A stretch of DNA of 64,000 nt, from the NCBI RefSeq assembly GCF_018977255.1, contig NW_024704742.1, forward strand, positions 136,402,001 to 136,466,000. The letters are read 5' to 3'. This document shows positions 53,401-56,400 of the stretch, one piece after another. The position numbers and the translations under genes were made by a program. The stretch's first letter is position 1, and each line of letters opens with the position of its first letter. Under the pieces are notes generated by a model. It was not told the DNA's origin. It saw only the letters and a program-made list of their open reading frames with translations, and made no database searches. Origin of the DNA: Callorhinchus milii. Lineage: Eukaryota.

Positions 53401-56400
53401 ATTAACATCCACTGAATAGGCAGATAAAGCCTAATGATCCCAAGACACTATTTGAAAAGCCAAGGGAGTTTCTCTCCCAGTGTCCTGGTCAACAAATCCC
53501 CCAAAATAACATTGGTTATTTGCTTCATGGCTGTTTGTGGTACATAGCTGTGTGCAAATTGTTCTTGGGTTCTCCTCCCAACCTGAAAAGCGCTATATAA
53601 ATGTAATAATATTTGATCAGTCCACGACTGTTTGTGGGACACTGCTGTGGGCATTTGGCAGCTGTGTTTCGACCACAAAACCCACGGTCACTACACTACA
53701 CTTTGCTGTAGCATTTTGAGATGATAAGGCACCATATCAACTGCAAGGATTATTATTATTATAGTTGATGTGAATGGGGCAGCACTGGTTAGGATTTCCT
53801 TCCCCCCCCCCCACTAACCCCACCGTTATAATAAATTTTCTGCTGTATTTCTCAGCGTCAGGAGCTGGAGTCGGAGAACAAGAAGCTGAAGAACGAGCTG
53901 AACGAGCTACGGAAGGCGCTGGCGGAGCGGGGAACTGACCAGCTCTCTTCCCACGGGGAGGAAGATTATGGCCTGCTGCTTGGGCAGCTGCGGGCGGCCA
54001 ACGAGGAGCTGGAGGTGCGCAAGGAGGAGGTCCTCTTGCTCAGGACCCAGATAGTCAACAACGCACACCAGAAGGAGGCTCTCAAACAAATGGTAACTGT
54101 CTTGCACACAGCAGTGTCCACAGACGGTCGTGGGCTCGCCAGGCACTGCTGGCTCCCTATCACCCAAACATCAATTTCCTGACACTCATCTTCAAACCCC
54201 TTCATGCCCTGGCACCTCCCTACCTCCATGACCTGATTACACCCAACACACTACCCGCTGCCCCCTGGTCGACTAGGTCCAGCCTCCTGCATGCCCATCA
54301 TGCCCTCTGTTCCACCACTTTCAGCCACTATGCCCCGCAACTCTGGAACGCCCTTCCTCTATCCCTCCGCCTTGCCCCGTCCTTCCCTATCTTCAGGTCG
54401 GGCCTGAGGACCTTCTCCTTCATACCTATGGTTAGCTTCCCCCCTCCCCCTGGATCGGCATCGTGCTCCGCAACTGTCAAGCGCTCTGCGACTCTACCCT
54501 GCAGGAGGGGTGCTATCGAAATACAAGTTGATGTTGTTATTGTCCATTTGCCTTCTCTTCGTCGCTTCCTTTAGTTTCACAGGAATCACTGGTCAGATTG
54601 GGTTTCAATTACAAGACAGGAATAGACTCCAAGAGAGTTCAGTCAGCTGTTTCCCTTCCGTCCGCATATTTTCCTGCCCTTTCTCTTCGCTCACCTTGAG
54701 ATATTCCCGTTGCTGCTGGCAAGCTCTGTGGTTTTAGCCGGTTAGACTCCCAGCACCCCAACCCACACTCTGGGGACCCCAAGCCTTGACTCTTGCCAAC
54801 CGGCACCTAATACTTTCTGGAATTAGGTAAGCAGTCCGCGTCCCTCCAGGGAGAGAGCGCACATTTCATTCTAACAATCTATCTCTGGGATTTCCATGTA
54901 TAGTAGGAATGCATGGAATTCTCAGTTTGATTTGGAGACTCTTAAGCAACAGTGATGGGTTTCCTCATGTGTCAGACACTCGGCTGACCCCAAAAAATTG
55001 TTGATCCTGTGACTTCATTGTTCCCCCCCCCCCCCATTGCCCCCCGTGATTTTCCCCTCACCCCAATCTCCGTGATCTTTCCTTTCCTCGCCCCCGCACG
55101 GCCCTCACTCAAGCCGAGTTTTGATTTCCTCTTCCAGGAAATAATCGCGGAGAAATACGAGTGGAAAAGAAGCAACGAGAACATGGACAAGGACGACGCC
55201 ATTGAGGCTTACAACGGTATCTGTGACACCAACAGGTAAGCAGGGTTCTGACACTTCACTGCGAGAACTCGGGTCAAAGCTGGACCTTTTGGTCTAAATC
55301 TTCAACTCAGCTCTGGTTGAGACAATCAATTACATGCAAAGAGCATGAGTCTGCTGTAATAATTGGAGATCAGAAGGAGGTCGTTGGCCTTTGCAAGTTC
55401 TTCTGCCCCTGCCCCTCTGACAAAGATGTATATTTAGCCCCAATCCCTAAATTTTCTCTTCTTCTCTCCCCCCACCCTGTTTCTATGCCCTAAAGAGGAA
55501 TCCCCGCCCCCCCCTCCCCCCATACCAAACCACAGCACCTAAACTGGTAACACCCAGAGCTTTTCAGCCATGTTTGTGTGTGTCACCTTTATTCAGAAGT
55601 CGTGGGATGGCTGCGATGGGGAGAAATTGTTTCCCGAAACACATTTCACAGCATTCCTTAAACAAGGAAGGGAATGTGTTTAGGAATACCGCAATTTTGG
55701 CACAAAGGATAGAGTGCAGGGTCCTGAGGTGGAGCTCCTGGTAATGTTTACTGTTCACACTTACATCCAACAATGATTTGCAGGTTCTATGATCTTTAAG
55801 CCTCAGCTCTTGATAAAATTCTTTCTTAAATGCCTTTTCTTGTCCTATAATGTTGGTGCTGTCTTCATTCTTTCCACCTGACCTGTTGCTTCTTTCTTTC
55901 TCTCTCTCCCTCTCTCTTCCCTTCTCTTCCCACTTGCTTTCTCCTGTCGCTCACCTCCAGCCAGGCTGAGGATTGGCAATACCTTAATGAAGATGGAGAG
56001 CTAGGCCTGGCTTATCAAGGCCTAAAGGAAGTTGCCAGGTCAAATCTATGTCAAATCGTCTTGTTGTGTTTGTTTTGGGGAAGGGATCTGTGATCACCCA
56101 GTACATCTGGCTCAGTCGATAACGTTCTTGTTAGAACCTTGTGGGTTCAAGCCCCACCATCGGGGCTTTTTTGAACTCGCATGATCTAGGCTGACATTGC
56201 AGTCCTGGGGTAGAGGGTGTCACTGATTTGTCAGAGATGTCATCCTTGGGATGAGATGTTACAATGAGGTCCCGTCTTCCTATTCAGGTGGGCGTTAAAG
56301 ATCTCATTCCACGGCGCTATTGCAAAAGAATTGTACGCAATTGGCGCACGTGAGGACGGCCATTTTGTGCCCATGCAATGTGGCGGTTTGGGCGGGAAGG

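Follow-up and report, generated by a model that had tools for sequence, protein, structure and literature searches.

A candidate 9-nt microexon in elephant shark myo5b at the position of MYO5A exon B

Exon B of MYO5A is a textbook example of a microexon, and its inclusion enables the protein to bind dynein light chain. This exon is described as completing a non-canonical DYNLL motif, D-D-K-N-T-M-T-D (PMC3078936; review PMC6981383), and as being brain-enriched in mouse (PMC9284544). The class of SRRM3/4-dependent neural microexons tends to combine a strong donor with a UGC between the pyrimidine tract and the AG; a preprint gives 21–26% of them as lacking the UGC, and treats this motif as no strict requirement (bioRxiv 10.1101/2024.09.17.613571). 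Among 149 MYO5A proteins, we found an exon B insert in 45 (DDK in 28, EDK in 10, ESK in 6 and NDK in 1), while 95 were without it and 9 were unparsed; Lys occupied the third position in all 45 inserts. The elephant shark, in which a copy of this exon in myo5b is considered here, is a slowly evolving cartilaginous fish.

The analysis covered a 64,000-nt stretch of the Callorhinchus milii genome (the window). The gene in the window is myo5b: its exon A is 100% identical to C. milii Myosin VB (P0001), and P0001 clustered with shark MYO5B, not with MYO5A, with a support of 1.0 (FastTree, 37 tail sequences). P0160, P0161 and P0162 (Scyliorhinus torazame) formed a clade of their own outside MYO5A and MYO5B, although some carry the name Vb or Va. 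In P0162, from the shark, the exon B/C position still reads N-K-A-T-M-A-D, which may be a trace of the DYNLL motif.

Six annotated C. milii proteins were aligned to the window by script, giving 45 junction rows; eight rows were removed as doubtful alternative gene models, and 35 donors and 35 acceptors were kept. On the plus strand, exon A (exon 28) occupies 53856–54092 (237 nt) and ends with QKEALKQM in phase 0, and exon C (exon 29) occupies 55138–55235 and begins with E-I-I-A-E-K. The junction 54092/55138 between them is present in annotated C. milii proteins, which also include junctions with and without the alternative 78-nt exon D (55961–56038) and the junction of exon E (56451–56649). 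The placement of the candidate in intron 28 fits, with exon C as number 29 when counted back from the last exon under a 40-exon numbering, which we take to be the human count.

Several other features of the gene model were observed. A 66-nt exon at 52865–52930 is skipped in one C. milii model, where a junction from 52221 to 53856 was found too, and is possibly alternative. The exon at 25131–25145, where D-E-R-N-Q is expected, is one base short and its frame is shifted; the older C. milii models P0122 and P0001 are intact here, RefSeq P0121 begins downstream at M-R-F-F, and the deficit is probably an assembly error. A myo5b exon at 21231–21401, with an 84% match to residues 47–103 of shark MYO5B, is missing from the C. 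milii models P0001, P0002, P0003 and P0122. The sole N of the window is at 16977.

The candidate microexon, GAATCACTG, is located at 54583–54591 on the plus strand. Since exon A ends in phase 0 and exon C starts at 55138, its inclusion between them adds Glu-Ser-Leu (E-S-L) with the frame kept, and the 9-nt length and phase 0-0 given in the original prediction are confirmed. The letters quoted there are also exact, with the tract from about 54544, the CAG acceptor at 54580–54582, the 9-mer itself and the GTCAGA donor at 54592–54597. The acceptor with its pyrimidine tract (54544–54579) scored 11.1, above 29 of the 35 true acceptors, and the tract contains CCTTCTCTTC at 54551–54560, which occurs also in the exon-B tract of a teleost myo5a. 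The donor, previously called moderate, is weak to moderate, with a score of 6.3 that beats 6 of the 35 true donors. One TGC precedes the candidate acceptor, at -34 (54549–54551). In the interval that runs from the preceding AG to the tract, a motif scan found only one yUnAy match (54528–54532, with the A at 54531, or -52), and this match may serve as the branch point.

A competing TAG, which had also been foreseen, is present at 54572–54574 (score 7.9). It lies 8 nt before the candidate acceptor and breaks the AG-free zone: the nearest upstream AG is at a distance of at least 14 nt in 35 of 35 true acceptors and of 88 nt in teleost exon B, and an AG as near as 8 nt is found in 9 of the top 50 pseudo-acceptors. 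Use of this TAG would give a 17-nt exon with a frameshift and a stop at or near the start of exon C.

The splice signals were ranked with a position-weight model trained on the gene's own 35 junctions and limited to them, with true sites scored leave-one-out. The candidate scored 17.5 and ranked first of 2,976 AG-(3–27 nt)-GT pairs across 33,117 nt of intron sequence, of which the host intron makes up 3%, and none of 424 other 9-nt pairs scored as high. Across 40 model variants it stayed first in 35, and in all 40 it led both the 9-nt pairs and the frame-keeping pairs; bootstrapping (100 replicates) put it first 55 times, eighth at worst, and at the head of the 9-nt pairs 99 times. When the same model was applied as a positive control to the sequence past exon A of a teleost-like myo5a locus (L005), its top hit was exon B itself (D-E-K, L005:1864–1872), with a score of 20.0. 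Considering this ranking together with the residue match described below, we regard 54583–54591 as probably a real microexon, with some reserve.

The first alternative to be weighed is that nothing meaningful is spliced here, and that a pyrimidine-rich intron beside a repeat tail has by accident acquired a CAG and, 9 nt on, a GT. Such sites do arise by chance, as one 19-nt pair on the minus strand, among 6,540 pairs, outscores the candidate (20.5); none of 1,853 pairs reached the candidate score on the plus strand of 1–20200, so that these two sets combined gave 1 of 8,393 pairs and 0 of 321 9-nt pairs. With pairs of all lengths taken together, one of 11,368 others scores as high over about 117 kb. 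The expected number of such sites is about 0.009 per 1,045-nt intron and about 0.0004 at a length of 9 nt, both rough figures from a single null event and a 35-site model. The broken AG-free zone agrees with an accidental site, and so does the way in which the candidate was found, by a deliberate search of this intron. Against an accident, the candidate tops the whole gene, in the single intron and at the single length for which the paralogue has a known exon; the score is matched by none of the 424 null 9-mers, and the residues E-S recur in shark MYO5A. Considering both sides, we judge an accidental site unlikely.

The candidate was originally placed in a "TE-free island", and this description is right as far as it goes. 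Through self-BLAST within the window, we found a 172-nt stretch (54550–54721) without a second copy, with the 9-mer toward its 5' edge. Upstream is an old interspersed repeat (54195–54549), which matches several further sites of the window at 73–79% identity and whose (TTG)-rich end adjoins the pyrimidine tract; downstream, another interspersed repeat occupies 54722–54997 (self-BLAST, window only). The island was rejected as evidence for an exon and carries little weight, because such islands are common: there are 23 internal ones of at least 100 nt, and 43% of intron letters are unique. Their abundance is also counted in favour of an accidental exon. An origin of the island by decay of a duplicated acceptor, from exon C, A or E, was considered too and rejected, the scores being weak (20–23). 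Its 3' part, at 54646–54700, is a tract resembling the exon D acceptor that has TCGCTCACCT in common with it and ends in GAG (uncontrolled local score 38); it may stem from an ancient duplication nearby or be a common pyrimidine motif.

The repeat bears on a different origin of the exon. The sole branch-point-like match falls within the repeat end, so that what was exonised here, with a branch point supplied by the repeat, might be a microexon or a poison exon of 9 or 17 nt that has no kinship with MYO5A exon B. The 17-nt form, which ranks 6th of the 2,976 pairs and introduces a stop, would suit such an origin. The flank comparison with teleost exon B, also considered here, gave a mixed result: the global 35-nt score of the candidate was higher than those of 35 of 35 true acceptors, while its local scores were equalled by 2 and 11 of 35, with a shuffle p of 0.09. 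Under an independent birth, however, it would have to be coincidence that the candidate agrees with exon B exactly in length and position and has two residues in common with it, and we hold such a birth to be improbable.

With regard to MYO5A exon B, the shark form, which the original prediction did not mention, encodes E-S-K in six proteins from two species (Carcharodon carcharias and Chiloscyllium plagiosum), other isoforms of these species being without it, and the candidate E-S-L has two of three residues in common with E-S-K. A match of two in three was seen in 3 of 424 null 9-mers and in 2.0% of 2,314 AG-G 9-mers, or 3.9% when any known variant was counted, which puts the chance level at about 2–4%. 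Exon A ends five residues past QKE in both the MYO5A and MYO5B paralogues, the teleost donor in L005 included; the introns therefore share a register, and a fusion of exon B into exon A of MYO5B need not be assumed. Amphioxus MYO5 (P0159) has W-D-K-E-T-M-T-D with the spacing of MYO5A that includes exon B, which indicates that these residues predate the MYO5A/MYO5B duplication. With Asp at position 2 in amphioxus and in most bony vertebrates, Ser in shark MYO5A may be a later state, and the E-S match would then call for an additional change, convergence or chance; the apparently ancestral Asp is also counted in favour of an independently born exon. The teleost-like locus itself is unusual, as several exons at L005:368–1267 are without introns and a frameshift precedes the end of exon A, with an intron and exon B following. 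This region may be a partly processed copy, an intron loss or a misassembly.

The combination of homology signals with defects allows another reading, that the candidate is a true descendant of exon B whose function is lost or being lost, with inclusion near zero or mainly in the 17-nt frameshifting form. The TAG at -8, the missing well-placed TGC, the change from Lys to Leu at position 3 and a repeat inserted across what would be the old branch-point region may be marks of decay; the T-M-T core behind the role of exon B is gone from exon C of myo5b. We consider such a relic quite unlikely.

No protein in the annotation carries the exon. Exon A was readable in 203 of 224 MYO5B proteins, the other 21 being without the anchor, and none of these 203, which include six C. 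milii models and eight named shark species, had a three-residue insert at the A/C junction when read by eye. This result counts in favour of an accidental site. It is weaker than it appears, because exon B of MYO5A itself is annotated in only two of four shark species; in Chiloscyllium plagiosum, however, it is annotated in MYO5A (P0420) and absent from MYO5B (P0129). The expectation that annotation pipelines would miss such an exon thus holds in part, as the shark records suggest, but exon B did reach the annotation in the 45 MYO5A proteins given above.

Other loci and transcripts were also searched. Of the five loci from a metagenome scan, L001 and L005 were usable, L002 and L003 stop soon past exon A, and L004 was a weak match. 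The A–C intron of the bird-like MYO5B (L001:5241–6005), the only other myo5b intron examined, contained no candidate, with 0.7 as the best 9-nt score. A list of 708 zebrafish neural exons, in the accessible part of PMC12626424, includes the 9-nt exon B of myo5aa and the 78-nt exon D of myo5b and no microexon of myo5b. Both results are again what an accident of the elephant shark intron would give. In fragments that read through exon A (e.g. P0018, P0020 and P0031) and in bird L001, A is directly joined to C and no separate exon was seen; the residues of this region of the protein therefore belong there to exon A. A four-residue V-I-E-R insert of some bird MYO5B models was considered as a microexon and rejected, as L001 has a second donor 12 nt inside its A–C intron (L001:5241–5258), which accounts for the V-I-x-R insert.

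A search for short transcript fragments across the A/C junction gave two candidates, neither significant. Contigs of four runs guessed to be RNA (X1, X2, X4 and X5) gave only repeat-derived pieces on 52800–56700, with no splice joint and no cover on exon A, exon C or the exon before them, and have no bearing either way. We found no published myo5b microexon in the open literature that was searched.

The exon had been proposed with the dynein light chain in mind, and the implied DYNLL2 role is not supported. A DYNLL switch is unlikely because exon C of myo5b is without the T-M-T core, which in MYO5A comes from exon C; inclusion of the candidate before the E-I-I-A-E of this gene yields E-S-L-E-I-I-A-E. 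Compared with D-D-K-N-T-M-T-D, positions -3, 0 and +1 differ and positions -4, -1 and +2 fit a loose consensus; Lys is lost from -3, as is the M/Q-T core. The peptide bears some slight resemblance to E-T-R-E-I-G-V-G, the motif of GRINL1. That inclusion would build a non-canonical LC8 site, so that a myosin Vb isoform might bind DYNLL, is on this motif comparison very doubtful.

Taken together, we favour the reading in which elephant shark myo5b has in the candidate a genuine 9-nt microexon, alternatively spliced and sharing descent with MYO5A exon B, at a probability of about one half; this and the other strengths given for readings are judgements and were not computed. The proposal of a microexon at the exon-B position of myo5b is supported in part, by the top splice rank and the two-of-three match to shark E-S-K, and is held back because no transcript or protein was found to carry the exon and the one bird locus lacks it. 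A fuller history, to which we give even odds, is that exon B is older than the MYO5A/MYO5B duplication, that elephant shark myo5b splices its own E-S-L copy in neurons, and that the myo5b of bony vertebrates lost exon B. The exon would have been kept in the elephant shark lineage, while in bony vertebrates myo5b would have lost it or has it in a form not yet noticed.

Under the favoured reading of a retained microexon, the spliceosome would use a branch point near -52, the long tract, the CAG ending at 54582 and the GTCAGA donor. Because the exon and its donor are weak, it would be skipped by default, as in all annotated isoforms, and a minority of transcripts would include E-S-L, most likely in neurons by analogy with MYO5A exon B. 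The upstream TAG would probably divert part of the inclusion to the 17-nt frameshifting form, which would be expected to decay. The three residues would lengthen the flexible linker between the tail coiled coils, and most likely change just the length of this linker or a local binding surface. If this is true, a spliced copy in myo5b would date exon B before the split of myosin Va and Vb, and the microexon would have outlived the motif it once served, a clean case of duplicated genes dividing their splicing.

In comparison with the known systems, several differences stand out. Unlike MYO5A exon B, the candidate sits in myo5b, its third residue is Leu versus the invariant Lys, and the exon C that follows is without T-M-T. 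Unlike teleost MYO5A exon B, it has a weaker donor, an AG at -8 and no TGC near -13, where the teleost TGC is found. The weak donor also sets it apart from SRRM3/4-dependent microexons, and its only UGC (-34) precedes the tract. With neither the DYNLL motif nor a strong donor, it is not assigned to the neural microexons yet, and its resemblance to MYO5A exon B as an exon is one of length and position only. Like the 9-nt neural microexon of MYO5A (human HsaEX0041193; zebrafish myo5aa DreEX0048705), the candidate is 9 nt long, in phase 0-0 and between exons A and C. Further points of likeness to exon B are the G at +1, the long pyrimidine tract with a CACAG end as in teleost L005, and E-S as in shark E-S-K. 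With the SRRM3/4-dependent neural microexons, it shares a length within 3–27 nt, a preserved frame, an extended tract and a UGC between the branch point and the AG.
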